Source of the DNA: Podospora anserina
Taxonomy: Eukaryota
Assembly: GCA_017654855.1 (NCBI GenBank)
Contig: CM030333.1
Location: forward strand, 4,526,001-4,590,000
DNA length: 64,000 nt
Reading direction: 5' to 3'
How positions within the stretch are numbered: position 1 is the stretch's first letter; each line of letters begins with the position of its first letter. Below the pieces are notes generated by a model that made no database searches, had not been told where the DNA came from, and saw only the letters and a program-made list of their open reading frames with translations. Made by a program: the position numbers and the translations under genes. This document shows, in pieces, positions 1-54,576 of the stretch.

Positions 1-40
1 TCACCCAACTGTTGACACCTCCAAATCTGGATCAGCTACT

Positions 41-1177
41 ATGGATCAAAATCCAGGCTATCAAGGGTTCAGCCAAGGTTGGTCCAATGGCCTGAACCCA
101 TCTGCACCTTCCTTCGACCTCAACTCTGCCGAAGGTCAGGCTTATCAACAGCCACCAGCCCAGTTTGATTCCGTTCCCAGATATCGCCACCCCAACGCTC
201 AGCCCAGTCCTGATTCTAGCCCCATAAATAGCCAGCGCTCTCACAACAAAAAGAAGAACAAGCGTAACCGCAAAGGCCAAAGCGAAGGCGGCGGCACCGG
301 AGGCGAGTACCTCACCCCCCGTCAAAGACGAAAAGCTGCCCGAGGAGCAGACCCAAACCAGCCCCCAGTCGGCGGTGGTGGTGGTCCCAACCAACTCCCA
401 AACAGCAACCTTCCCCCCAAACCCCCTCCCGGCCTCTCCCGAGACATGGACAGAGCTCGCCTACCGGCGCAATCAACCCTTCCCGACCTCCTACCTTTTG
501 CCCCATCCGCAGAGTCAGGCGGCGTTCCCGTTCCTACGGAAGCCTACCTCGCCCGCGCCAACATACCCCCTGCCCCTTCCCCCTCTCCGCACTCATTACT
601 CCTCGTCATCGACCTCAACGGCACCCTCCTTCATCGACCCCACTCTAGGAGATCTGACCACTACATTCGCCGTCCTCATGCGGAGAAATTCGTGACGTAC
701 TGTATCGACACATTTTCCGTCGTCATCTGGTCTTCTGCCCGACCAGAAAACGTGGAAAAGATGTGCAGGGATTTACTGACGGACGACCAAAAGCAGAGGG
801 TTCTGGCCATGTGGGGAAGGGATAAATTCGGGTTGACGGCTAAGGACTACAACAGAAAGGTACAGGTGTATAAACGGCTGGAGACGGTGTGGGGGGATCA
901 GCATATCAACCCCTCTGGAATGTGGCACCAGGGGAACACGGTGCTGATTGATGATTCGAAGGAAAAGGCGAGGAGCGAGCCGCACAATGCGGTGACGTTG
1001 CCGGAGTTCACGGGGAATAAGGAGGGGAGATGGGAGGGGCAGGTGTTGCCGGCTGTGCATAATTACTTGAACGAGCTGGCCAAGACGGAGGATGTGAGCA
1101 GGCTTATGAGGGTTCATCCGTTTAGAATGCCTATGAATAGGGAGGAGAAGCCTATGAATGGGGAGGACGAATTTTAG
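41..1177 (+). CDS. FCP1/NIF-homology HAD-superfamily phosphatase-like protein (single exon)
   Basis: 378-aa ORF. Low-complexity N-terminus followed by a NIF/FCP1 domain: LLVIDLNGTLL, RRPH..F, VVIWSSA, VYKRLETVW, NTVLIDDS..KA..EPHNA. Confidence 0.85.
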   Translation: MDQNPGYQGFSQGWSNGLNPSAPSFDLNSAEGQAYQQPPAQFDSVPRYRHPNAQPSPDSSPINSQRSHNKKKNKRNRKGQSEGGGTGGEYLTPRQRRKAARGADPNQPPVGGGGGPNQLPNSNLPPKPPPGLSRDMDRARLPAQSTLPDLLPFAPSAESGGVPVPTEAYLARANIPPAPSPSPHSLLLVIDLNGTLLHRPHSRRSDHYIRRPHAEKFVTYCIDTFSVVIWSSARPENVEKMCRDLLTDDQKQRVLAMWGRDKFGLTAKDYNRKVQVYKRLETVWGDQHINPSGMWHQGNTVLIDDSKEKARSEPHNAVTLPEFTGNKEGRWEGQVLPAVHNYLNELAKTEDVSRLMRVHPFRMPMNREEKPMNGEDEF

Positions 1178-2280
1178 GAGATGGGGGCTTGGGTGGATGT
1201 GGGGGAAGGGGTTTGGAGGGGGGTGTATAGGTGGAACGGGAGACCTGGGAAGAGGACGACGGGGCAGAAAGAGCAGAGCTACATGAAGGTGGCGAAGTGG
1301 AGCAAGAGGCTGGACAAGGCCATGCCGTAGGGGAGGTACGTGACGGGCTGCATACCGGAGGTGAGGAACCATCATCAGCTGCCTTGCAAGGTCCTCAATG
1401 GGGATGGTACACCTCGGAAGGTTGAGGAGGGGGAAGTTGGCGAGTTGGATGAGCTTGTGCAGAGCCTGTACCTCATCTTGCCGCGGCGGAGAAGACAGAA
1501 GCCGTTTAATCACTGTATGAATAACAAGAACGTGACGGTGCTGTAGACAGCGGGTAGGGGAAGAGAGGGCAATAGAGATAAAAATAGCGGTTGTAGTGTA
1601 AATCAACAAGCGTATATTCATACGGCATGCCCTGGAGAAAGATAACTGGTGCTGCGAGTCTGTAAAACTTGTAGTTGTGGTTAATTTGCAGAAGAACGTA
1701 GTCTCGAAAAATAGTTGATAGGCCTCAAAGATAGCTGGGATGCATGACTTGCTTTTGCAGTGCCAGTTATATTGTCTGCAGCGTGATATAGGTAGAGGAA
1801 TAGAGAAAGATCATGATAAAAGCGGTAGTGTGATAAGCAAGTGTTTAAAAGGAGAGGGGGAATGGTTGGAGGGAGTGTATTACCTAAATTGTACATTCAT
1901 TAGTCACATACCATACCAAGAATGCTTCCAACATCTCTATCAAATCCCTGTCATGCTAAAAAGCATCGCAGGCACTGCCGAGTCACCACGGTATCTCAAT
2001 ATTTCTGAATGTTTTTGTTTTTGTTTTTCTTGACTAATTTTGATACTTTACACGACAAAACAAACTGGAATCAAAGAACTTTATTCTGGACGCAGTAGCA
2101 AGTGTCTAGCTTAGTCGACGCTCATCAGCGACCTGACTATTGGCGATATCAAATCACACATGAACCAAATGGGCTCAGAACCCGTCCCGTAATTCCCCGT
2201 CCAACCCATTCATCAGTCATGTCCCATAGTCTAGCACACCACCTCTGCCGGCCCGAAATGCGCTTGAAATTTTTGGTTGT

Positions 2281-3895
2281 TTATTTGAAAACCTTGCCAG
2301 AGGCGTGGGGGTACTCCTTGCCGTTCTCGACAATGGGCTTCTCCCAGGTCCACTGAGCATCCACGTACTCGCGGTCCTCGGGCTTGGAGGGGTCGAGCTT
2401 GGTGAACTCGTAGCTCTCATAATCGGGAGCGACGTCAAAGACGGGGACGTAGTCGTCACCGCGGATGACGAAAGCACCCTCGATGATGGAGTCGTTGTTG
2501 GTGCCGTAGACGGAGGCGCAGCCGAAGAGGTACTTGCGGGAAGCCTCGAGGCGGGTGTTAAGGCCACCGATGAGGTTGTTGGACATGAAAGTCAGGGTAA
2601 GCTCATCGTTGTACTTGTAACGGCACTTCCAGATGGAGTACTCGTTGAAGGGAACGTTCTCCCAGAACCACTTTAGGGCCTCGGGGGTGTCAACGTTGGA
2701 GTACTGACGCTTCCACTCATCAAGAGGGAAGGTGGCCTTGGGAAGGGCCTCAAGGGGGTGCTTGGGCTTGGGGGCCTCAGCGGGCTCCTCGGCAGCAGGA
2801 GCAGCGGGCTTGGGGGCAGCCTTGGGGGCAGCGGGCTTGGGAGCCTCGGCCTTCTTGGGAGCGACGTTGGTCAACTTGGGGGCATCAAGAAGAGCGAACT
2901 CGGGGGCAACAGCCGAGTAGATAGGCTGGTTGTAGACAGTAGAGTACCAACGGGTGACGTTGGGGTACTTTTGCTGGAACTCCTTGCCGAAGAAGTACTC
3001 GAAGCCGCGGGCGATCAAGCCAGTGGCGAAGAGATCGGCGAGGGTGATGCGCTCACCGACAAGGTAAGTGTTGTTGGCGAGGTGAGCATCGACAACGGCG
3101 ATGACGGCGAGGGTCTCCTTCTCAGCCTCGTCAACAGCCTTCTTGTTGTAGGTGGTCTTGCCGAGGAGAGGGCGGAACCAGTTGCCGAGCTTGGGGAGGA
3201 CCTCGCTGTTGAAGAAGGACATCCACTTGAGGATGGAAGCATAGCTGCAAACATGAGATGTTAGCAATCTGGTTTGCGGTGTATTCCGAGTCTGGGTTTT
3301 GACTTACTCCTGCTTGGTCTTGCCGAGGAGAGTGGTCTTTTCGTTCTGGGAGGCGACTGTATCATCTGTTAGCTACAGGTATCCAGACCCATATTGCGAA
3401 AGCAGACAAAGAAGTGAAAAAAGAAAGCAATCAGAAGTTAGAAACCAGTTCAACACGGTTATTCAGATAGGGATAACTGTTAAAGAATGTCTAGGTCATC
3501 AGGTTGTAGAGGGCAGGAGAGGCTACACCGGACAGGATGTCGCCAAAGGGAGCTGGAAATGGAAAGCGGGGCAATATCGCCATCGAAGCCTGAATACCAC
3601 ATACCATAGATGGCGATGGCAATGCACTCGGTGAGAGTGAAGCCGTCAGCGCCGACGAAGGCGGGGACCTTCTTGAGGGGGTTGGCCTTGGTGAACTCCT
3701 CGGTAGGCTGGGCGAGGTCAGTCTCAACCTCCTGGAGGTCGAGGCCGTTGGCCTTCGCGACGGCGCGGATGGCCGTGGAGCGGGGGTTGCCCTGAGTCAC
3801 CCCATCATGTTAGTTATTGAGCAGCCTTCACAGAAAAGGACATCTCTAGCGGGAGATGGGCTTACCGGGTATGTGAAGAGCTTTCCGAATGCCAT
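2281..3895 (-). CDS. TEF4: Translation elongation factor 1B gamma (GST-like N-domain plus EF1G C-domain); exons 3895-3866, 3791-3605, 3356-3308, 3244-2281
   Basis: Spliced product MAFGKLFTYPGNPRSTAIRAVAKANGLDL...KPKHPLEALPKATFPLDEWKRQYSN...FMSNNLIGG...GKVFK. Three GT-AG introns keep the frame; strong codon bias. Confidence 0.96.
3427..3507 (-). ncRNA. snR38: Box C/D snoRNA, snR38 homolog (LSU rRNA 2'-O-methylation guide), inside eEF1B-gamma intron 2
   Basis: Minus strand: box C TGATGA (3501-3496), guide ACAGTTATCCCTAT then D' CTGA (3466-3463), C'-like GTGTTGA, box D CTGA (3434-3431). The guide is complementary to the conserved LSU AGGGAUAACUG. Yeast snR38 is also hosted in the TEF4 intron. 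Confidence 0.9.
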
Positions 3896-4286
3896 CTTTG
3901 CTGCGGTGCTAGCTGTCTGGCTGGATGTGAAGGTTCGGAGAGGGGAATTGGGTTGGAGGGGAGTCAAGGCGACAATGTGCGAAGGGTAATAAAATTTATC
4001 TGGCGGGGTAGATTGTTCTGGTGGGGTGTGTCCCTGCTGCTTTGCTAAGCCATTTCTGGCAGGCAGTGAATACATGCGGGCGTGTGTGCGGGACACTGGG
4101 TGCTCAGGCCACGCTGCCCAACCCGCGAGGCTGAGAGGTCGATGCCCGCCGCTTTGTGAACGGGCATGTAAAGAGGTGGCCCGAGCTCCCGGCTCAATCA
4201 CCAACGACTGGAAAAATTCCTGCGGTTGTTCCGTGGCGAGCTCCCGGCGGCCGACACCCTCCGATGGGAGATAGCACCACGCGATA

Positions 4287-5280
4287 ATGGCCTCAATACC
4301 AACAACAAGACGAGGGCTCGCCGTCGCCATGCGGGGAACCGTGAGACCTCGGTCTCTCGAGCAACAATTTCAGGCACTGCGACTAAACGCTAAGGGTTCT
4401 AGGTGCCTGTCCACCCAGTCCTTCCAGACCGCTCCCGAGATCGATTCCGTGAAGCTCGAGGGCACGATTCGAGCCAGACACGCCCGCGCGGTACCAGTAT
4501 CGCCATCCTACTTCTCGCGCACATCGCGGTTCAACGACAGCTATCTCGCCCTCGACAAGCTCCTCAGGATCTACGGAAATCTCCCCACCATTCCCGCCAA
4601 CGCCGTCGAGCGCGTGTCTTGGAAGACCCTGGACGATTTCAGACATGCCGTCGGTGAACAGGTCAAGGCAACCGACTATGTAAAGTGCCTCGCCATCGTG
4701 AAGCGGTTACATCAGATTCACCCGAAAATCAAGCCTGCCCCGGTTATTCAGGCGTTGAACGACTTCAAGCGGAGTGTCCAGGCCTTCAGCAACGAAACTG
4801 TCAAGAAATCGCTTGATAAGTACGGGCGGTCTTTGGGCAGCGGCAGGAGGAAATCGTCTTCGGCCCGGGCTTGGCTTGTGGAGGGCAATGGGGAGGTTCT
4901 GGTCAATGGCAAGACCCTCGCGGATTATTTCGGACGGGTTCATGATCGCGAGAGTGCCGTCTGGGCGCTCCATGCCACTGGTCGCATGGACAAATACAAT
5001 GTTTGGGCACGCGTGGAAGGAGGCGGTACCACAGGGCAGGCGGAGGCCCTTACTTTGGCCATTTCAAGAGCTCTCATGGTTCATGAGCCTGCTCTGAAAC
5101 CTGCATTGAGAAGAGGCAAGTGCTGGCATGCGTGGCTTCACACTGGTTCCGGTTTTATGGGATATATGCTGACTGGTGTTTACTGTAGCTGGTTGTGTCA
5201 CACGCGATCCAAGAAGGGTGGAGAGAAAGAAGCATGGCCGCGTGAAGGCGAGAAAGAGACCTGCGTGGGTCAAGAGATAG
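4287..5280 (+). CDS. MRPS9: Mitochondrial ribosomal protein uS9m; exons 4287-5115, 5189-5280 (GC-AG intron)
   Basis: GSGRRKSSSARAWLVEGNGEVLVNG and VEGGGTTGQAEALTLAISRAL motifs. Removing 5116-5188 restores the canonical C-terminus AGCVTRDPRRVERKKHGRVKARKRPAWVKR*. Arg-rich presequence. Confidence 0.93.
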
Positions 5281-8200
5281 AGCGGTTTAGTGGAAGCATT
5301 GAGCTGTCTTGGGTTTCGCATAACGGATCGAGCCTGGGCAGGGTGCTGCCCCAGTTTTTCTCTATATGTAAGCCTGACTTCTGTAACAACCAAACTACCA
5401 ACCATAGATGCGACTCAAGGGCTTGTTCGCACGGGCACTCCCATAACTGTACAATACAAAGCCATCGGGGCCCTCCGGTTTATAGAACACAACGTGCCCA
5501 GTCAGTCAAGGAGGGAAGGAGAAGGCATCTATAACGAGCCATACTATGCCTGAGAGGTCTCGGCAGGTCAGCCAACACGGCACGCCGCCGAACATGAGGC
5601 GACGAGGAGAGCCAGTGAGAATTCGGTTTGCCAACCGGAGGTGCTGCTCGGGCGGAAGGAAATGGGACAGAAACGTGGCAAGTCCTCGGTCCGCATGGCT
5701 TCTGCCCCTGCCCATAACCCAGTCTCCGGCTTGACGATTGGCTCTCGGTCAAACCATGTCGGCGACTTGTTGATTTTGGGAGACGGGATATATGAGCCGC
5801 ACGAACGTGTTTCCAATTGTCCACGGCCTTGGCTAGGTATAGGACCACGATCCCCCTGACTGTCAAAACTAGACCATGCAGCGACCCACCAAAGTGCGAC
5901 GATACGAACGGCCAGCCCGCGGGTAGAGAGAAAACGACATATGAACGGCTTGGTGTTGATGTGTTCTATATTACGTTACTCGGCGGTCACCAGAGTTGGT
6001 GACTGTTTGCCCTCCGGCAACGGCTTGCTTTCCACTGATCCGCGGTTTCATTCCGCCGTTGAGGAAGAACAGGTGGGCTGCCGCCTCGCACAGACATTGT
6101 GGCTTGACTAGTTGTCACACAAGGCTTCGAGAAGGGGTTCCCGAAGTGTATATGGGATGTTTTCGTAGTGTTGGGATGTTCCATGTGAGCTGATGCAAAT
6201 CACATGGCTTACGACTCACCTCAGATTCCAACCTCGATATACTGTTGTCATCTTTAAAACACACTCAAACACAAAAGCCCAATGAGGAAGTCGCATGCTC
6301 AATAAGGTAAACCGTTACACCATGTCGAGGGTCCGGAGTTAGTCCAGTGCGATGACAGCTGAAAGGACAGAATTGCCTAGTTGATCCAGAGCTAGGTAGA
6401 GGCTAGTGTAGATGACGCCGAGTGCCGGATATGTTTAGAACGGATCATCTACAGGATCTAGTGCCAGTACGACGTTTGTGATTCAGACTCACCAACAGCA
6501 TCAATTTAGGTGATCTACAAAAGCATTCAGCTTCCTAAGGTTGGAGATTGGCGACCACTTGAATCCAAACCTGGTGATGTCGCAGTCCCGCAATGTTTCT
6601 AAAGTCGTGAAGCATCATGAGCTGAATCGAAGACGCCTCCATCGCATGTCAACTCCGAAATCCGCCTGCCTTCAAACCGAGTCAACAACGGACGAGTGGA
6701 TGCCCCTCGTCGGCTCACGCTCTCGAAGCGGATGATGGAAGTGAGGCATATCCGCGCCAGAAAAAAAACGAAGGTTCGCAGCTGGTTCATCATGCAATGC
6801 ATCTCTGTCGAACGTCGTTGAGTACCAGCGGCCGTGTTGTCATGCGCATCAGGTAGTGGAAGTACATCGCGGCCTCAGCAAAGGGGGTTCCAGAAGCTGC
6901 CGCAATACAGCCTCTGATTGGGCGGCAACGGCTTCTTTGGCTGGCTTTGGGCCAACCCCCCGGTCAGATACGACGCGGTGCATGCGAGCACAGACAGGGA
7001 TCTACCTCGCATCTCTGGACTCTGTTTGACGACATTCCACCCCTTCCCCTGGCATCTTTAAGTCAACGACATGGATCCGGGATCCATGAGCCCTCCTTCA
7101 TTATAACAGATATACTAACCTAATGCACGACAGCACCGCTGTACCAGTACCTGTGGCCCAACCAACCAAGTGCCGACCTCCATCTCCGTCCAAGGGAAGA
7201 AAAAAAAGTCAGTTCTGCTCTGTCGGAGGTGGTTGCACTTATGGCACCAATGCCCTGCACGAGGCGTGGGAGACATGGAAGCAGCAGTAGGGCAATAATG
7301 GGAAGGGTAATTGTAATTGATCTCTTCTCTTGCTATTTAGCTATCTAGGATCCAACGCTCAGACAGTGGATTCCAACAGCCTTTTCCATTCCTTCAAACA
7401 AATGGATATCGGGCCGGCCCAATGCGTTCTGGCGGGAGTTTCGAGATGGGAAGGGTTGGGACCGAAAAACCACTCATCTTCTTCCATCCTGTTCTGCGCT
7501 GCTGAGGTAGCCCAGGTGCTGCAGCCGCTACACGCGATAGTGGAGAGAACATCCTGCGGGCACTCCGGCTCCTTTCACCACCACCGCGAGGTGTAAATAT
7601 TCTCTCAGCCAAGAACTTGGACACTGACTGATTCATTCAGTGATTCGTGGGGCCCCTTTTTTTTACGCCGGCAGTTGCTTTTTTCCTCCCACAAGAGTAC
7701 CTACCGCAAGTCCGCAGCAGCCCGACAGCTTAGCGGCTGGCACTTGTGAGACATTTGAAGCATCTGCCCTTTCCCTTGGGACCAGGGAAGGAAGTACTTG
7801 CCAAACCGGGCGACGTGACGGTCTCAAACAGAGCGATGATTTGACGCACCCTTAGTGAGTGAGTTCCAGGGCCAGAGCCCTGGTTCCATCTGGTCGTTGG
7901 CCCAGGCATGACGAATGTAGAGGGAAGGTGTGGTCCACTTTAAAACCCTGCCATTTTGGGACGGCACGTTTTTCACGTCCAGCGAGAGAGGGTCTTGCTG
8001 TGAGGCCGGGAGGGCAGGGCAGGGCAGCCAGTGGAATTGTTTTCTCTGGAGATCATCACGCTGGACACACCAACCGTTTTCCCGCCCATCGCCTCGTACC
8101 GGACAACTGACCAAGGATGCCATAATACGGATTCAACGAACAGGCAGAGGTTTCCGCGCCAAGTATTCAGAGGTCGGCGCTCTTGTCGCTCGTTGTTTGA

Positions 8201-10664
8201 TGTTGGCTCCAACGCTATCCAGGGTTCTCGGCATCTTGTTCGTGCTGTCCAGGTCCCCATGCGAGCCAAGCTGTTTAGTACCATCGCCCCATTAGGCCCT
8301 CTTACCTGTCATCATCAAGATCGGAGCCTCATCCGTTTTATTTCTCAGATTTCTCTTTCCATTACCTCAGAAGACCGGGTCTGCCAAAACCAAAACGCCA
8401 TGCCGAGGCACGGGCCGACCATGCGGACCTGCAAGCTACCGAGTAACCAGGCAGAAGAGACAGATGGTTGAATCACCAATGAAAAGGAAAAAAACAAGAG
8501 GATGTTGCTGCACAGGAGAAACAAAAACGCAGAGCGGTTTCGTTGCCAGACAAACGGTTCTTGGGGCATCGCTCAAGGGGTCTGGTCTACGGCCAATGTT
8601 TCGAACATTGAGACTGTTAGCCCGACATCTCGCCAGTCCCGGCCTCACCTTAGCTTCCGAGGCTATGATTGATCGGTTGACAATGACCTCGACATTAGCA
8701 CGGCCATTGCCCAAGTCTGTGACCGAGGGCAGGGGATTCTGTGACTTCTTTCTTTTCTCCCTACCGGTTTGTCTGACAATGGGTTATGGAATGAGCTTCT
8801 GTCCGGAGAGAACTGCTCGAAAACTCAGCATCAACTCTTTATTCGTCGATGCTACGGAGGGGGCATATCCCACACGCTCCGCCTGGTCAACACCACCGCA
8901 AAACAAGTAAGCCATCGCCAATTCAGACGTCACACATCATCATCAGCGCGGCTCGGGTTCTACGTACGCCACAGATTCACATTCAGCCCGGCAAGCCTTC
9001 CGGATCCCAAGATCCACCGAGCCCCCTGTCTGCCCGCGATCCGATCCTGGCGCTGGAAAGGCGTCTCGCTTCGTGGGGGGGGGTCGCCGTAGATCTCTCG
9101 GCCCTGCTTAAACCCCCAGTCCATCTGAACATTGTTTCTCAATACACACCTCACATAGCACCCCATGTGTGTCTTAAGCCAAGAGGTCCATTCTGTCTAG
9201 GTACGTCGCCCGTGGATCTAAAATGGCTGTGGGTGGGTGTGGAGAAGCGTCAAAGTCCTCCAGATCGACGAGGGACTAAAGAGGTACCTTGCCTTGCTAG
9301 TACCTCTATGTATACTCCATTGCCCAGCACCAAGCCGCACTTTTCTACCTTTGCCCTGTTGTTGAACTTTCTTTTTGTTCTCTTGCGGCAACCTAGCTCG
9401 GCATTCACACTACATCTCCCTGCGCCTCCAACGGCCAGTCTTGGGAAGTATACACGCTAGTCTCTCCAAACAACCGACGATATCGCCGACACTGCTGTGC
9501 AGTTTGGAGTAGTCGCCGTTGTGGTTGTCTGCGCAGCCGCGCTTCTGCTGACCGTGCAGCCCGGTCTGAGTCCTGATACCCAAATCCACCTGCGAGCGAG
9601 CAAGCAAATTCTCGGGAGTCGTCTATATAAGACCCGAGCCGATTCGTGTCTAGTCCCGCAGTCTCCACGCACAACCAAACTCGGCGGTCCCTTGCCTTTG
9701 CTCTCTCTTCTTCCCGACCATTTGCTGCGATAACATCATCCAGCCATACAAGTTCTGGACCCCCCTCCGCTGATTCAGCAAGACTCGACCTCCTACACTG
9801 CGTTTCTGAGCTGTAGGTGAACGCGAGTCAGGCTTTCCGCAGCATTCTCGAAGCCCTTCAGCAAGGCCAAAGCCTGGAGAGACTTGAACCTCGAAAGCCT
9901 TCGGCTTTGTAACTTTTGAAGCCTGTCAGTCTTTGACCTGGGATCTTCCCAGCTGGTTCCCCTCCACCGTTGATCTATCGCCGTCTCTCTCCGCTCGGAG
10001 CCAAGTTTCTCTCCCACACCGAACACCAGGTCCCTCCTTGCCCCTTCTGATACCGCAATCGGCGACTATCCAAGGCAAGATCCGTCCTGCCTTCGACTGG
10101 TCAAGTCCGTTCCATCTCCACTCTCGCGCGCAGAGCCCTCCTTAGCTCTTGCGGGACTTGTGGCCTCACCTCACCCGCTGTGGCAGAAAGAAAATCTATC
10201 CGCGGGCTCTGAGCCTATCGTCGTCATCGAGAAAACACATCACGGCTGCGCCAGATATCACCCGGCGACCTACGGCTTCCCGCTTCACGGCTCTCGGCTG
10301 GATACTTCGAATTCACACGTCGGTAACACCACGGGTTCCAAGGGTCTGGAAACGCGGCGTCTTCTAATCGTTTTCACTGACGGCGTTGACACGTCCGTTT
10401 CCCCCTAGCGGTTGTTAGTTGATTTCCGTTGCGTTAGTGTTGCTTGCGCGCGCGTGCGGTCATCACTCCTTACCGCACCACCAAAGTTTTTTTCTCATTT
10501 TTCGACATCGAGATCTACCGGAGACACCTGTGGTCCGTGGCCGATCGACTCGCCAACGAAGCCGGGTCTTTTTTACCTCGCGCGTCTACTCCACTCTCTA
10601 GCGGGACACGGAGTGGACTCGGCAACACTTGGACTTCGCAGGCAGTTATTTCGACGTCAAGGGC

Positions 10665-11940
10665 ATGGACGACTCTCGAGGCCAGAGGAGGCAGAATGAT
10701 CCGCCCACCTACAGCCGGCAACATCACCCCGCGCTGCAGGCGCAGGCAGGACAGGATCGGAGGTCATTTACGGGTACACAGAGAGATAGCAGGTTCCAGA
10801 CGACATCACTGAGTTCTTCGCCCGCCGGATCTTCCCGCGGAATGGGTGGTTCAGCCGGATACGGCGCTTACTACCAGGACTCAACAACGACCTCGTTCCC
10901 CACGACGGCCATGACACAGGGCGCGCTGGGCTATCATCACTCTGCCGCTGACTACGGACAGCCAGACTCACGGCAAACACAGAGCTTTGCCGGCACGTAC
11001 AATCCATCCATGATGTACAACGTCCAGCAGGCAACAGGGGGGCAGAGTGCCGGCGTGTACGATGCGAGTCAACAGTTTTCCTCGCGGCAAGCCGCAGGTC
11101 TTCCAATGATGACGGATGTCACGGCCCCCTACTTCTCAAGCGAGCCAACCAATACCACATCCGCCCTCCAAGCCCAGGCGCAGACGTCAAGCACGCCACA
11201 GGTATATCAGCAGCCGGGCTTGCATGGCTATTCCACCAGCAGCATGGCAGCCATTGGAGGAATCACTACGCAGACCACTCCTGCTGCGGAAGTCAGGATG
11301 GAGGAAGAATATCCCGCCACAGGAGGGCTGGACGATGCATATGCGCAATACCAATCAGCGCTCAAGGGAATTTTCAAGGACATCCGAAATGGTGCTCTAG
11401 CCACTGCCGGAGAATCCCTTCTTCAGGTCTCGACTTGGCTTTTGGGACACGTTGTTGAACTAGGTAAGTCGGGTGAAACTTTTTCCACCCTGGGTCTCTC
11501 GAAACCTGCTTCTGACAGTGATCCCTTGCTCCAGGCCTCACGTCTGACGATCAGAATCTCCATGGCGAACGTATCAAGCTGTGGAACGACTTCAACTATG
11601 CCTGGCTCGGCATGTTCCAGCGCCAGAAAGAAATGATAGAATCCGGACAGCAATTACAGCGCTCCCAAAGCCTAGTGCCGCAAGAAGAGCTGGAAAAGAT
11701 GGCCAAGGAGCTGATCAAGTATTGCGACAACATCGAGCGACATGGTCTGGTAGACTATCAGTACGGAGTATGGGAAGAGCAAATTATCGAAAGTACGTAT
11801 CACAACGGCCCCTTTTTGATCTAGCTACTTGATCACTAACCACCGCACCAGTCCTTGGAGAGTGCGTCGATCTTTACGAGTCGGCCAACGCCTCTGGCAG
11901 CAGCGGAGGCGAGGGATCCTCCAGCTCACGTCGGCGATGA
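10665..11940 (+). CDS. Fungal hypothetical protein (Q/S/Y-rich disordered N-terminus, helical C-terminal domain); exons 10665-11463, 11535-11792, 11852-11940
   Basis: Two canonical introns (GTAAGT..CTGAC..CAG; GTACGT..CTAAC..CAG) join three ORF fragments into one frame ending ...LWNDFNYAWL...GLVDYQYGVWEEQIIEILGECVDLYES...RRR*. Confidence 0.85.
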
Positions 11941-14900
11941 AGAGGCTGAAGAACGAGGACGCAGTCAATTGATGTCTGGCTTTTCCCAATCCGGAGATTA
12001 GTTTTGACCTTTTGGAGTCTTTCGATGTCAGAACCCAGACATTCATGTACCACCACATTGCCTCGCGCTCCACATGCATCATTTGTGTGTCTTTCTTTTC
12101 CTTGGCTGTTTGCCCTGTTTATCGGTTGTCGTGTGCTCCAGCAAGGAGTTGGGCGGGTCACCTTAATACCTCTTATGTTTTGTGGGGATGTATTGGGAGT
12201 GGGAGGACAGAGAGCTGGACGATGTGGGATGTGATGAAGGCATCTCTTCTCTAGCTCTCGCTCGGCGCTCCTGGGAATGGAGCGTTTTCCTAATCTGGGG
12301 TTGGATCTTACGGCAAAGGGGGAGAACACATGCAAGGGCCCGCAACGTCCGTGACGACCTGCGGAATAGGAAAGGCTTCTTCTAGCGGAGGTTGCCGCCT
12401 CGGATCTCTTTGATGGAAAGGCGGTTGGTGATTCTGGCCAATTGGGCTATGGAGCTTTTCAGAGCATTGCTTTCTTGTGTATCTTCTATTAGGAACGGGT
12501 TCGTCAGGAATCCGACAGGGCAAGGATGTTGTGAAGCTCTCTGCCATGGCAGAACCTCCCACAAGGAGGAGATGGAAACCGGCTTGTACCGCTTTGATCA
12601 ATTGAGGAAAAGTTATCAAGATGTTTGTGATGATGACCGTATATGCCTCTTGGCCAGGGCTGCGCAGAGATACGAGTATAACTGGCCGGGGGCAACGCCG
12701 TAAGTGACGAACATGGGCAATGATGGATTACAGGTCTGGATCAGGTGAATAAAACAGAAAAACATCGAGTAAATAAAAAAGTTGGCCAGTGGTATGTTGT
12801 TCGTACCTGTCACCAGTGTACATGAATACAATCCACCTCGAAGCACCCTTATCTATCTCATCATGCTCTTGCAAGTCACCAAATGAAGCTGATGAAGGCT
12901 GATTACTGATAAACAAGGCTTGAGAAGCAAAATCAGAACAGGGCTGAGGGTTATATCGCCCTCAACAACGGGGGCCAACGCCTCAATGGGTCACCTCAGC
13001 TGATGTATCACGGCGTTGAGTGATCAGTCCATCTGTCAGGAAAGCCCAGGGGGGGGGATGAGTTGAAATTGGGATGGGGGCTCCAGTGGTTAGACTGTTA
13101 CACAGGGCAAGAAAGACCGAGTTACATGCGATGTCTCCGAGCAGCGCTGAAAGCAGAAACTAGCGGCGCTGCAATTGAAAGCGCCAAGGCCCCGTGAGAC
13201 AGAGAAACTGGCCCAATCAGTTTGCAACGTTTGCCAGACGGGGCCAACCAAACTGCTGGGTCAGGGCCGGCTAGCTCTTTTGGGCCAATAGCACTTTCTC
13301 ACTTTATTATCCCGAATCCCTTATTTCTACCTGGCTTTCTTTTCCCAGATCATCACACCCACATCCTCAACGAGACCGCGGTCGGTCGGCACTACCAGCA
13401 GCAGAAGGATTGATTGTCTTCTCAACTCATCGCCCCATCTTGTCTGCGGTTCTCCTCCACGTCGGCCCCTACCCGTTGACACCCCCTGGTCGTGTTGTCG
13501 GCACACACACATTATCTCTCCACCATGAGAGGCAGGTGAAGTTACAACGCCAAGAAGCCTTGTTGTGCAGAGACAAAGTTACACCAGATTGACAAATGTG
13601 TCTCGCAACACCAAAGTACCCATCAGGTACCCGGTTGCGCTGCAGAATCGAGTGGGCCTCGCGCTACTGCAAGTCACCCGCCAGTTGTCACTCACATTTC
13701 ACCTGCACACATCTCCAGCCGATCGCCTTTCCCAGGGAGCCATCTCCCGTCCGTCCCCTGATATTATATCGAGTGCCACAGCAGCAGAAACCGTGCAGCT
13801 CACTGGTTTCCCTGCAGGAACACTTGTCAGCGTCAGACTCACCTTTGATCCTCATCTTCAACATCCCCTCTCTGATTGGGCACAGCACACGGCCGACCTC
13901 GCCGACCGAGATAACAAGCACAGAGACGCCAAGACACAGGCGATGGCGCTCATCAACTTTTGCGGGTGATTGCAGCGAGATGTCTCTGACCCGTGGTAGA
14001 AACGGCGACTTATACATCAGCTCCGAAATGGCCTGTACTCTCCGACCTACCTATCTACGATCAAACTACACACCACCACTACCTTACTTGCTAGACATAC
14101 GAAGGGCGTCTGTGCTTGCCCAACAGCGGAAAGATTACAAAGTTCGTCTTACATACAGTCTCCGCCTACCCCGTGGCTTTTTGTTTTCCAAGGTGGACCA
14201 CTAGGAGGCACATCATTAGGGTATCAACAAGCATTCGATGCTTAGGATCACCCCCTCCATGATCTCCAGATCTCCGCAGCCGAGTCCCAGAACCATGGAT
14301 CGAGATTCGGACGGCGCACATCAACCAACACCCCCACAGGACAGGGGTCTGGGTAGCTGTCAAGCATTTCTGGGGTCCAGTGAGCTGAGGAACTAGGTAC
14401 CCTGTCACGTTTTCATCAGCTTGCCTCAGTTGTATCACATTTTCACATCCCGCATTTCAAAACCTCAAAAGCAACAAAACAGAAGAGCCAAGCCGACGCG
14501 ATGGTGACCGAGCCGCTTTTCCGCAGGGCATGAAGCTCACCTTACTTAACTGGGTGAAAGCTAACACACTTCGATCTAACTTGTAGTGTTTTATGTGAGG
14601 CTTACCGGAGTGTTTACTCCTTGCTGAAGATGATGAGGATTGGCATCGACATTGCCGTAATGAGGGATGAACAGAAAACGATGATACCGCGACACCCAGC
14701 CGAGCTGGCTTGGAATATGTCTGTGGATACCCGAGACAAGATACCAAAAGACTGAGGGTTGGAACTCAGATACACGGGGAACTGACAACCGCCATCCAGC
14801 CTCGTTTGTGACAGATCACCGCCCTCTATCCCTCCCCACGGCAACGCTTCCTGTGTTTCTCGGGTCTTGATCGCCAGTCTCAGGCCGCCCAGCCCAGCCC

Positions 14901-16085
14901 TCAACTTTGACAGACGCCTGCCAAACAGGGACAGGACAAGTAACGTCCACCATTAGGGAGCTAGTCGTCGGTCCGCCGCCGGGCGCCCCAGATTTAGGGC
15001 CATCACCATGATTAGCCTGTAGGATGCCGCTGTGGCTTTAGTCAAGAACCCCGTCCTCCATCTCCCCTGCCTTGAAGGAAAAGGCCTAGCCTAGGAGTCA
15101 CATGAGGTTTGCTTTGACATACCCTACAGCGACTTCCACGGATGGATGATCAAGGGAACCTTGAGGGAGCGGAAGAGGGACAGGAGGCCTAAGGTTTTCG
15201 GGTTTTTTGTTCTGCTCGAGGACATGGCCGGGCACACACACAACGCTCGAGCAGAGTCGTTGCGTATATGGGCCATGGAGTGTGACATTTGCAAGAAGAA
15301 GTCAGACAAGGTACACTGACTGGACGGACTTTATTCAACGCCCCATGCACGTAGCCGACAAGGGGATCACTTACATACATGCATGGTGAGCCATACGAGG
15401 GAGGAATGCAGGTCGCTCCTCCTACACCCTCTCCCTCCACAGCCAGGGACATCATCCTTCGTGTTTCTTCTTCTACTCACCGAGACCTTCATGGGTAGGT
15501 GAGTAGATTCCGCGTGTGACTGGACTGCAACCGCCCGTGAGGGTTAGGGAGTAGAAGAACAAAGTTTGCGAGGGAGAGGTGGCGGCGCCTGCACCGGTCC
15601 GTTCGGCTAGGGTGCATTAGTTTTTGAAGGGAAAAGGTAGGCCGGGCTGGAGGGGATGGACATGTGATTTGTTGATCTGGGCCGAGAGGGAGTGGGAGGG
15701 CTGGGGAGGGCGGGTTACTAGGTTGGGTACTCCGTACATATGGCGGTGGTGTGGGTGGTGAGTGAGGCTGTGGGTTGGGTCACTTTGCGGTGTGGTGAGG
15801 GTGAGGTTGAGTACATAGGGAGGTGTATGTACATAGGGTGGGTGGAAGGGTGGGGGGTGCGGGGGGTATGCATAGCTTACCACGAACGGAGAGCAAAAGT
15901 CACACCATTAGGTGTACTCTGTTTGGAAAGGTAAGGCTGTAGAGGTATGTTTGATGTCAAAGTGTCCAGATGGATTGATGATGATAGGTTGAGACTGTTT
16001 TCATGGAGATGTACCGTAATGTAATGAGATGACAAGCATGGCAATGGAAACTATTGATCGATTATTTGTCTAGTGATCATGGCCG

Positions 16086-16114
16086 TCTCTCTCTCTCTCT
16101 CACTCACTCACTCA

Positions 16115-16165
<51 letters not shown>
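16086..16165. repeat. Compound microsatellite (TC)n-(ACTC)n-(AC)n
   Basis: Directly visible: a TC run, ACTC units, then more than 20 AC units. Confidence 0.97.
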
Positions 16166-16168
<3 letters not shown>

Positions 16169-17635
16169 TGGTGCCTGCGTTGGACACTCACACCGAGGCA
16201 CACCTCGCCTAAGCGGTGGGTGATTTCTTTTGACAGGAAAGCAGCAAGCATAACGTAGAAGACAGATGTGAGGCGCACACCGGTTTCATAGTTTTTTTCT
16301 TCTTTTGTTTCAAGTAACAACCTAGGCTGGGCATATCCACACGCACGCGGTGTTGTCATGAGTTTGCCTACCGCGATCCCTAATCTCTCACTAGGTAGGT
16401 AGGATCACTCATGGAGGTAGGCGTCAGTACACAGGCAAAAGAGTTGGGGAGGAGATGCGGTGATGGCTTTTTGCTTAGATCTGTGAATGGGTGGGGTTCA
16501 GCCTTGATTCATGTCAGTTACTGATTCCTTCTAACAGGGTGAGAGGATGTGGGCGGGTAGGTTGGCGATTGAGATTTCCAAGTTGATCTACTGCCAGGTT
16601 GACGCAACGGCGGCCAAGTGGAAAGCTTTCCAGGATGGGAGAGAGTTGGAGAAACAATAACAGGGCGTTTGCTTGGAGTTAGTTGCTTGTTTTGGTATAC
16701 TATGGGGGGACGGGGTAAAAGCATTTCTTTACTGCTTGGCTCTTTCGACAAAATGACATATCAGCCCTCCTACTATGCTTTAGAGTGGAGGTAGATAGTT
16801 TGTGAGTTACAGGTAGGTACCTGTAGTATAGTAAAGAGCACGCAGGATATGGAGTCTGTCCACTGCCTACATGCCTCCGTGTACAAAGGGGGGCAGGCTA
16901 ACCCCCTTCTTGCCCTCTTGAAGTGCTGATTTTGAAAACGGAAAGACGTTCCGAAAAAGATGCTGGCCGTTGCTACAGTATATATGTATCACACTTATCT
17001 TGCTTTGACTAGGAATGGAGGGGCTAACTATCTTCTTAAACTTTGTGTGAACAAAAGTCCATTCCATTTCAAGCCATCACTAGTTGGTTTGTTGTTTATA
17101 TCGCTTATTCGCTGTGATTTATGGCGAAGAGGATTCAAAACACCTCGGCTTAGGCCCTTTGCCAACATACTCACCGACTCAAAAACAAAAAGTTGAGACT
17201 GCCGGTGGGAAATCAAGGCTTTTGGGAAATAGTTCAATGGGGACTTTGGGAATGGTTGACAGAGAGCACTGTTGACATGAATCAATATACGGCCAGAAAT
17301 AGTTCAATAGGCCTGCCTTTAAACACAGTTTACTACTTCTTGCTATCTTCACTGGGCCTGGCATCTTTTGATGGTTAAGGAACAAGGCAATGGTCTTGAC
17401 GCCAACACTTACAGCAACTCGAGGCTGAGAAATCAGCATAGAAGTAGGGTAAGAAAAAAAGAACAAATCAAGCGAAAATCAGTAAGAAAGAATTGTCATA
17501 TCATTAGTCCATTTCATGCTTCATTTCATGCCACCTTGCTGTGTGCTGTGCTGTGCTGTGCTATGCTAGAAAACTCTCTTGTTTGGTTGTCTAATGTTCG
17601 CAAAGCATGCCTGCCCATCATTCCTCTCCCCAGGT

Positions 17636-34251: not shown

Positions 34252-35231
<980 letters not shown>

Positions 35232-37057: not shown

Positions 37058-37815
37058 AGGGATCACAATACACACTTGGCACGGCGCATATTTGGAGGGT
37101 TTGTTTGACTAGTGTAGAAGGGAGGCTTCCAAGGACTAGAAGAATGCTCCCAGACTGGAGCAAAGAGCGCAAATGCTTTTGTACCACCTAATTGAGATAT
37201 GTATGATATTTAATACCTATATGCCACTGCCTTTCTCCTTCTTTAAAAGTGGACCCGACAGGGTTGAAGCTTCACAAGCAAAAGGAGGAGCCTGGCTGGA
37301 GAAAACGACGTAGTCTCCTGTTGAAAACGGCCGTAGCCGCATTTGGCACCAACGTTGAAAATCATACAAAAACACCAAGTGGCAGGCCGCCTGCACAACC
37401 ACACACATTTGCAAGGCCTCTTTAGCTCCAATCTGCACCTGGTTTGGCACGTTTTGGTGGACTTTTGACCTGGAATTCAATGCCATAGATGTTTTGATAT
37501 GCATCGTGGCCATCGAAGGTGTTGAATAATGGCTCGCGTTGGTGCGGTTGCAACTTAGACGGCACCCAGTTACAACCACCACTCACCAGCCAATTGAATA
37601 GCCGACCAATTTAACCAACTAAGGCCACACCGGTCGTACAATTCAATTGCGGGCCGAAGCCAGTGAGGTGCTCGCTGTTGTGGTGGGAGGCCGTTGAAAT
37701 ATTTGTCGGATGGGTCTGCACGAAAACACCCCGTTTTTTGGTGCGTTTTCACCATTTTTTGATGTTGAGTCAATATTGGTTCTATATGGCTAGCGTCGTT
37801 TTCAACAGGAGACTA

Positions 37816-39108
37816 CTGTGGTTACGTACAAAAGTTTTGCCCCCTTGTCAAGTACCGCCCAGGGCCTTGTTTTTTTGGCTAGGCCAACTTCGGCCAAAAT
37901 TCTACCGCAATTTCCTCCAGACCAGTATTTTCCACCTTTCAACACCACTTAGCCAGCCAGCCAGCACCACAATGGCTCCCAATCGCCACCTTACTACTGA
38001 AGAGCGTCAACGAATTCGTACCCTTTATTTCGACGGCCACCTTAGCCAACCCCGAATTCAAGAAACCACTGGTTATACGAAATACCAAATCCGCCATGCG
38101 ATACGAGCCCCGGCGGCCGAGGTCGCCCCACGATCTGGCCGACCACGCGTTATTACGGCCGATCAAGAGCTCGAGCTTATTCGGTATGTGTGTGAATCAA
38201 AGGCACACCGTCGGATGAGCTTCCTGGAGCTTTCTATTGCCCTTTTCAACTCCCTTCTTAACTGGATTACGATTCGCAACGCCCTTTACCGCCACGGATT
38301 TCGCCGTCGAGTTGCTCGGAAGAAGCCTCCTATTTCAGAAGCCAACCAGCAAAAGCGACTGGCCTGGGCTATAGAACATAAAGACTGGACTCTCGAACAA
38401 TGGCGTACAATCCTTTGGAGTGACGAAACCTGGGTAGTTGGTGGTCCTCACCGTAAGCAGTATGTTACACGCCGAATCGACGAGGAATGGGACCCTACTT
38501 GTATCGTTGAAAAGCACCAGAGAAAAGGAGGGTGGATGTTCTGGGGCTGCTTTTACGGCTCAACTAAAGGCCCTGGTATCTTCTGGGAAAAGGAATGGGG
38601 ATCGATCAATGAGTATTCTTACCGAAAGAATATCCTTCCTAACGTCCACGAATTTATTGACGATACCTTCGAGCAACACCATTTACAGCTTTCTTTTATG
38701 CAGGACGGCGCACCTGGCCATCGAGCGGCCGGTACGAAGAAGGATCTTGAGAATAGGAAGATTAGAGTAGTTGATTGGCCTCCTTTTTCCCCAGATTTAA
38801 ACCCTATTGAATCCTGTTGGAATTGGATGAAGGATTATATTGAGGATAAATACGGCCTTGAGGAGAAGCCGTCGTACGCGAAGTTGAAGAGGTACGTGGA
38901 GGAGGCCTGGCAAGAGCTTCCGAATCTTACCTTCAAACGCTGTTGGATTCGATGCCCAGTCGGTGTGAGGCAGTAATTGCAGCGAATGGTATGCATACAA
39001 AATACTAGCTATAGATATGGTGATTATTTTGTAGAATACAATCGTCAGGGTGGACCTTGACTAGCGCGAGTACTTGACAAGAAGGCAAAACTTACCCCTG
39101 CACCACAG
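37816..39108 (+). mobile_element. Tc1-family (DD34E) DNA transposon, 1293 bp, TA target-site duplication (TSD)
   Basis: Imperfect ~40-bp TIRs CTGTGGT..AAGTTTTGCC..CTTGTCAAGTAC at 37816-37855 and 39070-39108. TA at 37814-37815 and 39109-39110. Internal transposase. Confidence 0.93.
37972..39008 (+). pseudogene. Tc1 transposase with a 1-nt frameshift near the C-terminus (~38920)
   Basis: HTH region, SGRPR, WSDE...QDGAPGH-x-SPDLNPIE (D34E). The typical C-terminus ESYLQTLLDSMPSRCEAVIAANGMHTKY* lies in the -1 frame after CTTCCGAA. Confidence 0.85.
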
Positions 39109-43906: not shown

Positions 43907-44260
43907 TTAAACACGACCATCTAGACCCGAAGCAGCAAGGTATGGCCACCCGAGGATCATGCCAATGGCAGGGAAGTAACTGTATCATCGCCGTCAAATG
44001 TTAGCCATCTCTTCTGTTGATTTGAATGGGGGGAGAGAAGAAAAAACATACACAGCACCCTGCTTTCCAACCCTCTTGATCTGTCTCCCCCAGTCGGCGG
44101 CGGCAGAGTTGGTCGAGACGGGCAGACGCTCAAAGGGGGCGTGCTCGAAGGAGCGGGCGAACTGCCGGAGGGACTTGTAGACGGAGAAGGTTCTCTGTTG
44201 CTGCTGAACACCGCGGAAGGCGACGTTGCGGGCGGCGAGGCGGGCAAGAATGGGAGACAT
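43907..44260 (-). CDS. Small (93 aa) predicted mitochondrial single-pass membrane protein of unknown function; exons 44260-44052, 43979-43907
   Basis: CAAAAATG start. Arg-rich, acid-free presequence MSPILARLAARNVAFRGVQQQQRTFS. Intron GTATGT..GCTAAC..CAG. C-terminal hydrophobic segment GAVYFPAIGMILGWPYLAA. C-ending codon bias. Confidence 0.8.
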
Positions 44261-52405: not shown

Positions 52406-53603
52406 ATGTCCGTTATTCTATGCACCGGTGAGTTTTCCTCTCATGCTATACGATGTTGCGACCCTTCTGAGAGATCCTATTTCGGTGCTGCTCGCTATTG
52501 ACACGCCTGGCTGACATTGGGGTTCGATAATAGCGGGTTACGACCACACAATACGGTACGACAAGCCGGAATATCGAAATGCAGATTCTCTCGTATCAAG
52601 GGGCTAACACTCTTGCTCAGATTCTGGGAAGCTCTATCAGGCATCTGCTCCCGAACGATCCAACATCCTGATTCGCAGGTCAACCGACTCTGCATCTCAC
52701 CAGACAAGCGCTACCTCGCTGCTGCCGGCCACCACACCGTAAAGCTTTTCGATATCCGATCGACAAACCCTGCGCCACTTCTCGTCTTCGAGGGCCACAC
52801 GGGCAACATCACAGGTGTTGCATTCCACTGCGAGGGAAAATGGATGGTCACGAGCTCTGAGGATGGAACCGTCAAGATCTGGGAGACGAGGACTGGCACA
52901 ATACAGCGCAGCTACAACCATGGATCCCCTGCGAATGACGTCGTAATTCATCCCAACCAGGGTGAAATCATCAGCTGTGACCGCGCTGGCAGCATCCGAC
53001 TGTGGGATCTGGCCGAGAATACCTGCTCGCACCAACTAATCCCAGAGGAAGATGTGTCTGTGACAAGTGTCACCGTGGCAACCGATGGGACCCTTCTCTG
53101 CGCCGCAAACACTGTTGTATGTGGATCTTTCATGTTCTCGTTTGAAGCTCGTGATAATGAGATGTGCTGACCTGCCGTTGAAGGGAAATGTCTTCGTCTG
53201 GCGACTCGAACAGCAGTATGAGCGCACCACTCTTGTACCCCTAACCCAATTCTCAGCACACAGCAGTCACTACATCACCCGCATTCTCCTCTCGCCCGAC
53301 GTCAAGAAATTGGCAACATGCAGCGCGGATCATACCGCAAAGATCTGGGAGGTCAAAGAGATGGAACCCCAGGGTCCAGATAGTGAACCACGACCGTTCC
53401 CTCTCGAAGCCACACTCACTGGCCACCAAAGATGGGTTTGGGACTGTGCCTTCAGCGCCGATAGTGCGTACCTCGTCACTGCATGCAGCGATCATTACGC
53501 TCGCCTTTGGGAGCTTCACAGTCAACAAATCATCAGACAGTACAACGGCCACCATCGTGGCGCCGTCTGCGTGGCCCTCAATGACTACTCGGAGGCCAGA
53601 TAG
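52406..53603 (+). CDS. LST8: TOR complex subunit LST8 (WD40); exons 52406-52427, 52534-52555, 52621-53116, 53184-53603
   Basis: [38 protein letters not shown]...GHQRWVWDCAFSADSAYLVT...GHHRGAVCVALND; 319 aa. Confidence 0.97.
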
Positions 53604-53870
53604 GACGGGCCCTCGGAAGACTATTGCAAGGACGAATCACGCGGAGAACGCCGCAAAAGCAATTCGGGGTCAAGACAGCAAGACCAAGCTCAGAGGCGAC
53701 TCCAGCACCCCAGACAGAAACAACGGACAAAGTCTGGGACGAATTACAAGGCTGCGAGGAAAGCCAAGGATAAGTCGGGACCTTCATCAGCACCACCAAC
53801 AGTACCAACACCCGCGCCCGCTGGGCCACTGGTGACAGTAGAGGAAGCTACAGCTCGGGTTGGTGAGCTT

Positions 53871-53910
53871 GTTGTCACTCCCCAGGAATCGTTGTCACTC
53901 CCCAGGAATC
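53871..53910. repeat. Perfect 20-bp tandem duplication (GTTGTCACTCCCCAGGAATC)x2
   Basis: Directly visible. Confidence 0.97.
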
Positions 53911-54576
53911 CGCTTCTCCCGACGATGCGAGCGACGTGACCCCCATCACCCCCATGGAGAGCAAGAGATCATCATTCGTTGAGGTTATCGAGGGGCAGGT
54001 GAAGCGATCAGTTGCAGGGAGTTTTGGTGAACTGATAATTTGGGGATACAACGACTATGGCTAAGAAGTATCAGCATATGCAGTGATTTTTCTTTCTTCG
54101 CAATCCATCAGAACACGCTCTGTAGGAATATGTACCAACAATAGGGTTGATCAGTTGCGACTGCGTTTTGCAGAGAGGGAAAGGCTGGGGGCTGCATTTG
54201 ATGATAGCGATTGCGAAGAGTTTGGTGCCTACGGGGCAACCGGCAAAATAATTATCTGATTTCTGCAACTAGCAAGTAGCGACCAGTCGAATACATTGTA
54301 ATCCTGGGAACATTTTGCCAAAGATTTTGCGGCTTGCACCTCGCTTTCCCATTATTTGGTTTGTAAACTATCTACAGCACATTCAACAAGCCGCCCATCA
54401 ATCGCAACTCCATTTCTCCTCGCATGCAAACCCAAAACACAACACGAAAAAAACCCCTCCAAGTTTGCTTCCCATGCTTTTTCGATCGCCTCCACCAAAC
54501 ACCTGACCAAAACCGGTCTATATTATAAGTACCCAGTTTTCATATCGTCATACATAGGTCTCTCAAGCAGCGAAAA

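Follow-up and report, generated by a model that had tools for sequence, protein, structure and literature searches.

A candidate maintained stop-loss extension of LST8 and two further open frames behind TAG stops in a Podospora genome segment

Adenosine-to-inosine (A-to-I) editing of mRNA in the sexual stage of Sordariomycetes converts UAG stop codons to UGG, and the reported sites have U at position -1, purines at positions +1 and +3 and a location in hairpin loops (PMC11156358, PMC4817773, PMC13123824). Within the order Sordariales, editing is documented in Neurospora, Sordaria and Chaetomium (PMC13123824, PMC5381528). Here, a segment of 64,000 nucleotides (nt) of Podospora anserina contig CM030333.1 (positions 4,526,001 to 4,590,000 of the forward strand), referred to as the window, was analyzed for three genes whose TAG stop codon is followed by a long in-frame open stretch. 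These are the gene of a NIF/FCP1-like phosphatase (NIF), the gene of the mitochondrial ribosomal protein uS9 (uS9m) and LST8, which encodes a subunit of the target of rapamycin (TOR) complexes. At a probability of about 60%, the data are best explained by a maintained editing-type tail at LST8, a NIF tail that is either a young candidate or due to chance, and a chance frame behind uS9m.

According to the published catalogues, there are 323-403 stop-loss genes in F. graminearum and 47 sites in protoperithecia of S. macrospora, with peptide proof for 15 transcripts (PMC4817773, PMC13123824, PMC5381528, PMC6794485). About 9% of the UAG/UAA triplets are reported as edited, and the stop-loss genes of a genome number a few hundred (PMC4817773). 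In Sordaria, stop-loss tails including the 131-aa tail of WC-1 were proven by peptides (PMC6794485), and the adaptive value of such tails is disputed in print (PMC13684035, PMC13684032).

The conserved housekeeping regulator DBF2 (Du et al., PNAS 2026, PMC13123824) shows a clade-specific TAG bias of 94% versus <37%, to be compared with 21/24 versus 10/37 for LST8. As in the reported DBF2 case, the LST8 TAG is predicted to lie in a hairpin, the tails are longer within the clade, and they are coil-rich and alignable among close species only (PMC13123824). In contrast, for DBF2 there are editing measurements from eight species, and the tail of 24 aa is reported to act as a degron (PMC13123824), whereas LST8 is known from sequence alone. 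Unlike those of DBF2, the LST8 tails are much longer (85-258 codons), and in Chaetomiaceae-like relatives they have a conserved terminal motif and a ratio of nonsynonymous to synonymous substitution rates (dN/dS) of ~0.3. The 131-aa tail behind the edited UAG of WC-1 in Sordaria macrospora (Blank-Landeshammer et al., mBio 2019, PMC6794485) is comparable in length to the LST8 tails; it was proven by peptides, whereas that of LST8 was deduced solely by comparative genomics. For NIF, the counterpart is PUK1 (Liu et al., Genome Res 2016, PMC4817773), in which two tandem UAGs are edited; the NIF gene has two in-frame TAGs in a coding-like stretch, and both edits would be needed. Unlike those of NIF, the PUK1 stops are reported to lie inside a conserved kinase domain, the full length of which is set by the orthologues (PMC4817773).

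Hidden C-terminal extensions on housekeeping genes, as in the window, also occur in the cryptic peroxisomal targeting of fungal proteins by readthrough, which is characterized by UGA in a leaky context and by short tails with a terminal tripeptide of the peroxisomal targeting signal type 1 (PTS1). The window differs from it by its TAG stops, by the length of the tails and by the lack of a PTS1 end: the uS9m tail ends in ...YYA, the NIF stretches in ...AMP and ...TVL, and the LST8 tail in ...MRAT (...NDYG in frame +2). Hundreds of fungal genes are known to undergo stop-loss editing but, to our knowledge, a function has been demonstrated for DBF2 only.

LST8 and the frame behind its stop

The following features were annotated at the LST8 locus:

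52406..53603, + strand: LST8 gene (TOR complex subunit) with WD40 Pfam hits and relatives named LST8, pop3 or wat1; 5' exon borders predicted
53187-53600, + strand: in-frame part of the last LST8 exon, followed by the TAG stop at 53601-53603
53589..53617, + strand: predicted hairpin of -10.2 kcal/mol with the A of the stop (53602) in the 6-nt loop AUAGGA
53604..53939, + strand: in-frame extension of 111 codons, closed by TGA (53937-53939)
53871..53910, + strand: exact 20-nt tandem duplication inside the extension, with copies at 53871 and 53891
53912..54064, + strand: coding-like continuation in frame +2, open to TAA 54062-54064

In composition-matched shuffles, a stretch as open as the LST8 tail was found with a probability of 0.005. 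A model trained on confirmed window exons versus intergenic DNA was used to score codon usage, and held-out noncoding windows served as the null. The LST8 tail reaches -0.01 per codon, a value matched by 0/9280 noncoding windows and 0/87 open ones, and ten ordinary 3' untranslated regions (UTRs) range from -0.42 to -0.76. Its first residues, DGPSED, resemble the acidic start of the tails of relatives.

The preliminary description of this DNA had placed the end of the finding at 54064. This position, outside the TAG frame, belongs to the TAA that closes frame +2 beyond the tandem duplication. Since 20 is not a multiple of 3, the duplication shifts the frame of the tail. The stretch in frame +2 scores +0.105 per codon versus -0.75 and -0.49 in the other frames, with 0.28% of open noncoding windows matching it, and after removal of one repeat copy the tail comprises 146 codons, to 54064. 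A recent mutation, a variant of the strain or an error of the assembly may account for the duplication.

When metagenomes were scanned with the last exon of LST8, 80 loci were obtained, of which 60 are distinct, and the window exon is 80-91% identical to 23 of the metagenome loci. In a maximum-likelihood tree of the exon, the window is located inside a clade of 24 rows (support 99/99). The stop is TAG in 21/24 rows inside this clade versus 10/37 outside (Fisher p=4e-6), and an in-frame extension of at least 83 codons is present in 14/24 versus 2/37 rows (Fisher p=7e-6); the clade rows are related, hence both p-values overstate independence, yet most tails have no alignable common sequence. The open length exceeds the expectation from local composition (p<0.05) in 13/24 rows inside the clade, where 1.2 were expected, versus 4/33 outside. 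The openness is specific to the TAG frame, for example with 158/10/4 codons in frames 0/+1/+2 for L005, 181/19/4 for L009, 103/5/32 for L015 and 85/2/30 in a further example. At locus L034 of the clade (from 2448; exon 68% identical), 425 in-frame codons are open after the LST8 TAG, far beyond all others. An origin of the near loci from cDNA was considered and rejected: among the loci close to the window, 21/23 retain an intron of 64-90 nt, a gap of only 9 nt is present in L020, and the short L021 allows no judgement.

The A of the stop is placed inside a hairpin loop in 12/13 long-tail LST8 lineages (window included) versus 97/223 other TAGs of the same loci, and this baseline is high, at 44-53%, so that the loop is a weak discriminator.

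Selection was analyzed in the alignable trio L008, L009 and L010, the last exons of which are 93-96% identical to Mycothermus, Canariomyces and Chaetomium proteins and thus Chaetomiaceae-like. The tail has an in-frame dN/dS of 0.27-0.34, whereas its two shifted frames reach 0.95-1.50 and the UTR beyond the tail 0.43-1.14. All pairwise indel runs in the tail (8/8) are multiples of 3, in contrast to the majority of those in the 600 nt that follow. The variable sites of the tail are distributed over the three codon positions as 26/23/45 (p=0.011). Together with the tails of L005, L012 and L021, the trio has a common acidic start and a terminal motif, ...SAP.NFPP.RT.WEHWPVI, which ends exactly at the stop. 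The coding end of the convergent syntenic neighbour lies ~530-565 nt past the tail in L007, L009 and L010, and the neighbour is therefore no explanation for the constraint. The in-frame dN/dS and the in-phase indels argue that in these relatives the LST8 tail is translated and under moderate purifying selection, and a translated tail implies that the TAG is decoded.

The Chaetomiaceae-like tails (L005, L008-L010, L012; e.g., L009:3415-3957) have a helix-forming start, ...EQREHYILSCMTPEQR..., in addition to the common terminal motif, and between the two there is a variable Pro/Arg/Ala repeat region which changes by in-frame 18-nt units. For the L009 tail, AlphaFold with a 5-row alignment predicted mostly coil at a mean predicted local distance difference test (pLDDT) value of 55.6, with two short helices at residues 9-18 and 22-36 near the start, predicted with moderate confidence (pLDDT 68-80), and a third at 54-65. 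A likeness between the end of the window tail, ...LPRNPLLPTMRAT directly before the stop, and ...APRNFPPPRTTW... of the relatives was regarded as possibly coincidental, because the PRN comes from the second repeat copy in the shifted frame. In a loose protein alignment, the TGA at 53937-53939 stands opposite the first Trp of the relatives' ...RTTWEHW, which may be a coincidence as well, given the frame shift by the duplication.

Conservation of the frame in relatives, named in the preliminary description as a way to check the extensions, was thus found for LST8: the TAG is kept, most of the clade has a long in-frame open reading frame (ORF), and the three alignable close relatives show frame-specific selection. 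LST8, the sole locus of the three with comparative DNA, thereby shows the signature of a maintained site, namely TAG bias, longer tails in the clade and a conserved tail frame. On comparative grounds, the TAG and a long, mostly disordered tail are inherited in the clade of the window, which certainly comprises Sordariales relatives and probably Sordariomycetes.

TAG stops across the window and the NIF and uS9m frames

The features at the two other loci are as follows:

2..1177, + strand: NIF/FCP1-like phosphatase gene (Pfam NIF, 1.2e-18); 5' end outside the window, TAG at 1175-1177
1178..1546, + strand: NIF post-stop ORF of 50 codons, TAG 1328-1330, 71 codons and TAG 1544-1546
4329..5280, + strand: uS9m gene (Pfam Ribosomal_S9) with exon 4329-5115, intron 5116-5188, exon 5189-5277 and TAG 5278-5280
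5281..5553, + strand: uS9m post-stop open frame of 90 codons and TGA (5551)

The preliminary description had named three TAG stops in the context W-U-A-G-N-R. They were verified at 1175-1177 (NIF/FCP1-like, ttTAGgag), 5278-5280 (uS9m, gaTAGagc) and 53601-53603 (LST8, gaTAGgac), and 3/3 sites fit the editing preference reported in PMC11156358, namely a UAG stop, U at position -1 and A/G at positions +1 and +3. The long in-frame open stretches behind them (50 codons for NIF, 90 for uS9m and 111 for LST8) were found as described, as were the short ones behind the TAG stops of the TLG2-like gene (16 codons), GAL83 (8) and ACO2 (5). For CNB1, one candidate last-exon frame would lead to TAG 17568 with 14 codons thereafter, and a possible eighth TAG ORF end at 14202 is followed by 4 open codons.

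In total, ~25 ORF ends of the window were inspected for open post-stop stretches. The probability of a stretch at least as open in composition-matched shuffles is 0.05 for NIF, 0.008 for its second stretch and 0.022 for uS9m. Stop-to-stop intervals of at least 90 codons make up 5.7% of all intervals in the window. Extension lengths behind TAG and non-TAG stops in the window did not differ significantly in Mann-Whitney tests, neither for all rows (p=0.47; 8 vs 18) nor for the confident stops (p=0.21; 6 vs 10). A recurrent programme across the window, as proposed earlier, thus finds no statistical support (p=0.21-0.47). No separate programme is seen; the three loci are candidate members of the known genome-wide stop-loss editing, of which one is good, one open and one poor. 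A Pfam search of the three post-stop tails yielded no family.

RNA contigs of four runs (X1, X2, X3 and X10) from four studies were available for window positions 1-20000; the runs are not listed as RNA, but their contigs contain the expected spliced joints. The uS9m intron 5116-5188 is of the GC-AG type (GCAAGT...TAG), and its joint is present in the contigs of 4/4 runs. The sole difference between RNA and window in these 20 kb is G>A at 9861 in all four runs, a strain difference or an error of the window assembly; it is not editing because the direction is wrong.

At NIF, the codon-usage score behind the stop is frame-specific and on par with the gene's own exon (+0.06 per codon). The first stretch scores +0.03 (matched by 2.9% of open noncoding windows) and the second -0.003 (3.5%), with a G + C content at third codon positions (GC3) of 0.84 and 0.72, respectively. 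The search of the 122-aa tail against 1.84 billion representatives resulted in two matches, a 49-aa ORF (96% identical, with the same second stop) and a low-complexity sequence, and 0/51 candidates scored in the comparison of the tail with proteins of 282-900 aa. An in-frame intron at 1094-1177 (GTGAGC...TTTTAG), which would skip the NIF stop, was rejected as the major form since no joint was found and the contigs of three runs are continuous. The NIF tail is a young, double-edit-dependent extension with a chance of roughly one in three, and otherwise due to chance.

Over NIF, the contigs of each of the four runs stop at 1168-1200, less than 25 nt from the stop codon and by a G-rich tract (1181-1228), with separate cover further on (break 1168-1235). 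Adapter loose ends were found in two runs and no poly(A) at these contig ends, which may reflect a sequencing-bias gap or a real 3' end. On the minus strand, a stop-free frame of 345 aa (776-1810) covers the NIF 3' end and tail; it is in register with the codons of the plus frame, so that the plus-strand TAGs are read as CTA. As a gene, it was rejected as a probable by-product, with no Pfam family and a score of -0.14, under that of the plus frame.

The uS9m tail scores -0.23 per codon, which is matched by 50% of open noncoding windows, and has a GC3 of 0.48. The protein ends in ...KARKRPAWVKR, the canonical KR tail. In ribosome structures, the KR tail of uS9 extends to the P-site tRNA. The A of the uS9m stop lies outside a hairpin loop, and that of the NIF stop can be placed in a hairpin of only -1.5 kcal/mol. 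Because of the noncoding-like score, the missing hairpin loop and the canonical KR end, the 90-codon frame was judged to be a chance open frame in the 3' UTR. Thus, from the three extended isoforms that had been proposed, LST8 stands by the frame conservation in its relatives, codon usage alone speaks for NIF, and the uS9m extension looks like chance.

The window has a G + C content of 52.7% and represents a gene-dense segment of a filamentous ascomycete. The NIF protein has its best relative in Podospora pseudoanserina (98% identity), and the source of the window is therefore identified as a Podospora of the anserina complex, order Sordariales, and hence as a filamentous ascomycete of the Sordariomycetes, a lineage with mRNA editing. 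By Pfam, the annotated genes encode the NIF/FCP1-like phosphatase, EF1-gamma, mitochondrial uS9, EF-hand proteins, EPL1, KAE1, an AMPK beta subunit (GAL83-like), SPT4, an adaptin, a SNARE (TLG2-like), a Tc1/mariner transposase, COX7a, clathrin light chain, a CID protein, LST8, a HEAT-repeat protein and aconitase. The Tc1/mariner-type transposase ORF (37615-38973, 453 aa, with HTH_Tnp_Tc3_2 and DDE_3) is uninterrupted and located directly downstream of the TLG2-like gene.

Explanations for the LST8 tail

A-to-I editing of the UAG is inferred to be the most likely route to the LST8 tail. A sexual-stage deaminase of the Tad2/Tad3 type (machinery as reported in PMC11156358) would edit the A of the LST8 UAG to inosine, the A being displayed in the hairpin loop, preceded by U (-1) and followed by purines (+1 and +3). 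The ribosome would read UIG as Trp and continue, and a share of LST8 in fruiting-body cells would carry the tail. By analogy with the DBF2 degron, the tail might lower or modulate the protein, which is a guess. In the genome of the window, the 20-nt duplication would have moved the distal third of the tail off its coding-like frame. For NIF, the 122-codon ORF is interrupted only by the second TAG, so that two edits would be needed for the full product, or the frame is due to chance.

Several observations weigh against this reading. The window tail is unalignable to seven relatives by blastn: the similarity is lost 5-15 nt beyond the TAG and reappears at the coding end of the neighbouring gene, and the selection evidence is therefore limited to the tails of the relatives. 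The duplication breaks the coding-like frame of the distal third, which disfavours strong constraint on this part in the window genome. All three frames after the window stop are fairly open (111/76/55 codons) at a T content of 14%. Within the clade, 5/21 TAG rows have short tails of 1-18 codons, so the tail would have been lost repeatedly. Among the 120 best LST8 relatives in the database (query: L009 last exon, W and tail), no hard-wired tail was found, the matches covering at most 43% of the query, i.e., the exon only. The window hairpin is no more stable than shuffles, 86/200 of which fold equally well, and RNAalifold found no consensus pairs in 13 stop contexts. For NIF, ~3% of open noncoding windows match the tail score, and 13/13 aligned orthologues are tail-less and end at or shortly before the first TAG, so that no correction of a premature stop as in PUK1 is seen. 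Finally, the assembled RNA contigs contain no A>G, with A at 1176 in 3/4 runs and at 5279 in 4/4. Such contigs, from runs without recorded tissue, drop minor variants and are weak evidence on editing either way; published median editing levels are 13-15% (PMC4817773).

Part of these data would also be expected if all three extensions, including that of LST8, were untranslated chance frames in stop-poor 3' UTRs, which are T-poor, purine-rich or GC-rich. The openness of all frames behind the window stop, the unedited A in the contigs at 1176 and 5279, the share of long stop-to-stop intervals and the non-significant comparison of TAG and non-TAG stops in the window agree with this explanation, as does the GC-richness of the relatives' tails (0.56-0.73), in which long ORFs are less rare and for which the Chaetomiaceae rows reach a P of only 0.02-0.05. 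It is already contradicted for LST8 by the sequence comparison in the relatives: a dN/dS of 0.27-0.34 in frame versus ~1 out of frame, indels that are all in phase, a conserved C-terminal motif at the tail stop, the concentration of TAG inside the clade and the excess of rows beating their composition do not fit chance frames. Overall, we consider it unlikely. The low dN/dS could be due to another coding element behind LST8, either a separate small gene or an overlapping antisense gene, since minus-strand ORFs of 150-460 nt overlap the tails and antisense frames are able to mimic third-position patterns. No single minus-strand ORF runs across the tail in L008, L009 and L010, however, every minus frame being broken, and the syntenic convergent gene ends 530-565 nt beyond. 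Moreover, the conserved ORF begins at the TAG with the acidic stretch and has no shared start codon, and the tail is without a protein match in the database among the 120 best matches. Such an element is therefore very improbable.

The main rival to editing of LST8 is ribosomal readthrough of the UAG by near-cognate decoding, without RNA editing. The selection on the tail shows translation and not its route, no editing was seen in the contigs over window positions 1-20000, and programmed readthrough does occur in fungi. Known leaky contexts, however, favour UGA, whereas the stop of the clade is specifically TAG (21/24), and we know of no readthrough motif that fits the bases after the LST8 stop (GAC/GAT). 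These bases agree with the reported editing preference for purines at +1 and +3 (PMC11156358). The location of the A in a hairpin loop in 12/13 lineages, against the high baseline given above, also favours editing, and the TAG bias and the long tails coincide with the clade of known mRNA editing, as described for DBF2 (PMC13123824). The strict preference for TAG and the distribution over taxa are less well explained by readthrough, which is regarded as an improbable route to the tail.

In the broadest alternative, all three loci (NIF, uS9m and LST8) encode fruiting-body-specific extended isoforms of a recurrent programme, in line with the preferred context at all three stops, the unusually long open frames and the RNA contigs, in which the uS9m extension is joined to the coding sequence in 4/4 runs and which reach 535-1090 nt past the stop. 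Against it, the uS9m tail is noncoding-like by score, with a GC3 of 0.48, and its A lies outside a hairpin loop, and given the canonical KR end of uS9, which extends to the P-site tRNA, an addition of 91 residues is unlikely to be functional. The excess at the level of the window is also non-significant, and from published rates ~1 of 7-8 TAG stops would be expected to be edited, not three (PMC4817773). Three edited loci are thus quite improbable.

LST8 and proposed sexual-stage editing

With editing of LST8 as the preferred explanation, LST8 is a new, or newly argued, member of the known stop-loss editing and does not constitute a new programme. In the literature searched, LST8 and fungal editing were not found to be linked (both terms occur together only in an unrelated review); the supplementary site lists lay outside this search and may already list LST8. 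An editing catalogue for P. anserina was not found in this search either.

It is possible, although this broader claim is tentative, that throughout the Sordariales LST8, as a core subunit of both TOR complex 1 (TORC1) and TOR complex 2 (TORC2), gains a selectively maintained, fruiting-body-specific tail by stop editing, and that NIF additionally carries a young two-edit tail. For genome annotation, the LST8 case means that metagenome contigs alone can separate maintained stop-loss tails from chance ORFs. With its dN/dS of ~0.3, in-phase indels and conserved end motif, the LST8 tail would strongly argue, as a second case, for selection that acts on the sequence of the tail and not just on its being there and, if the reading is true, would be a clean test case in the dispute over adaptive stop-loss editing. 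The TOR pathway couples nutrients to development, and the LST8 tail is located in this pathway; if true, RNA editing would retune TOR signalling during sexual development.

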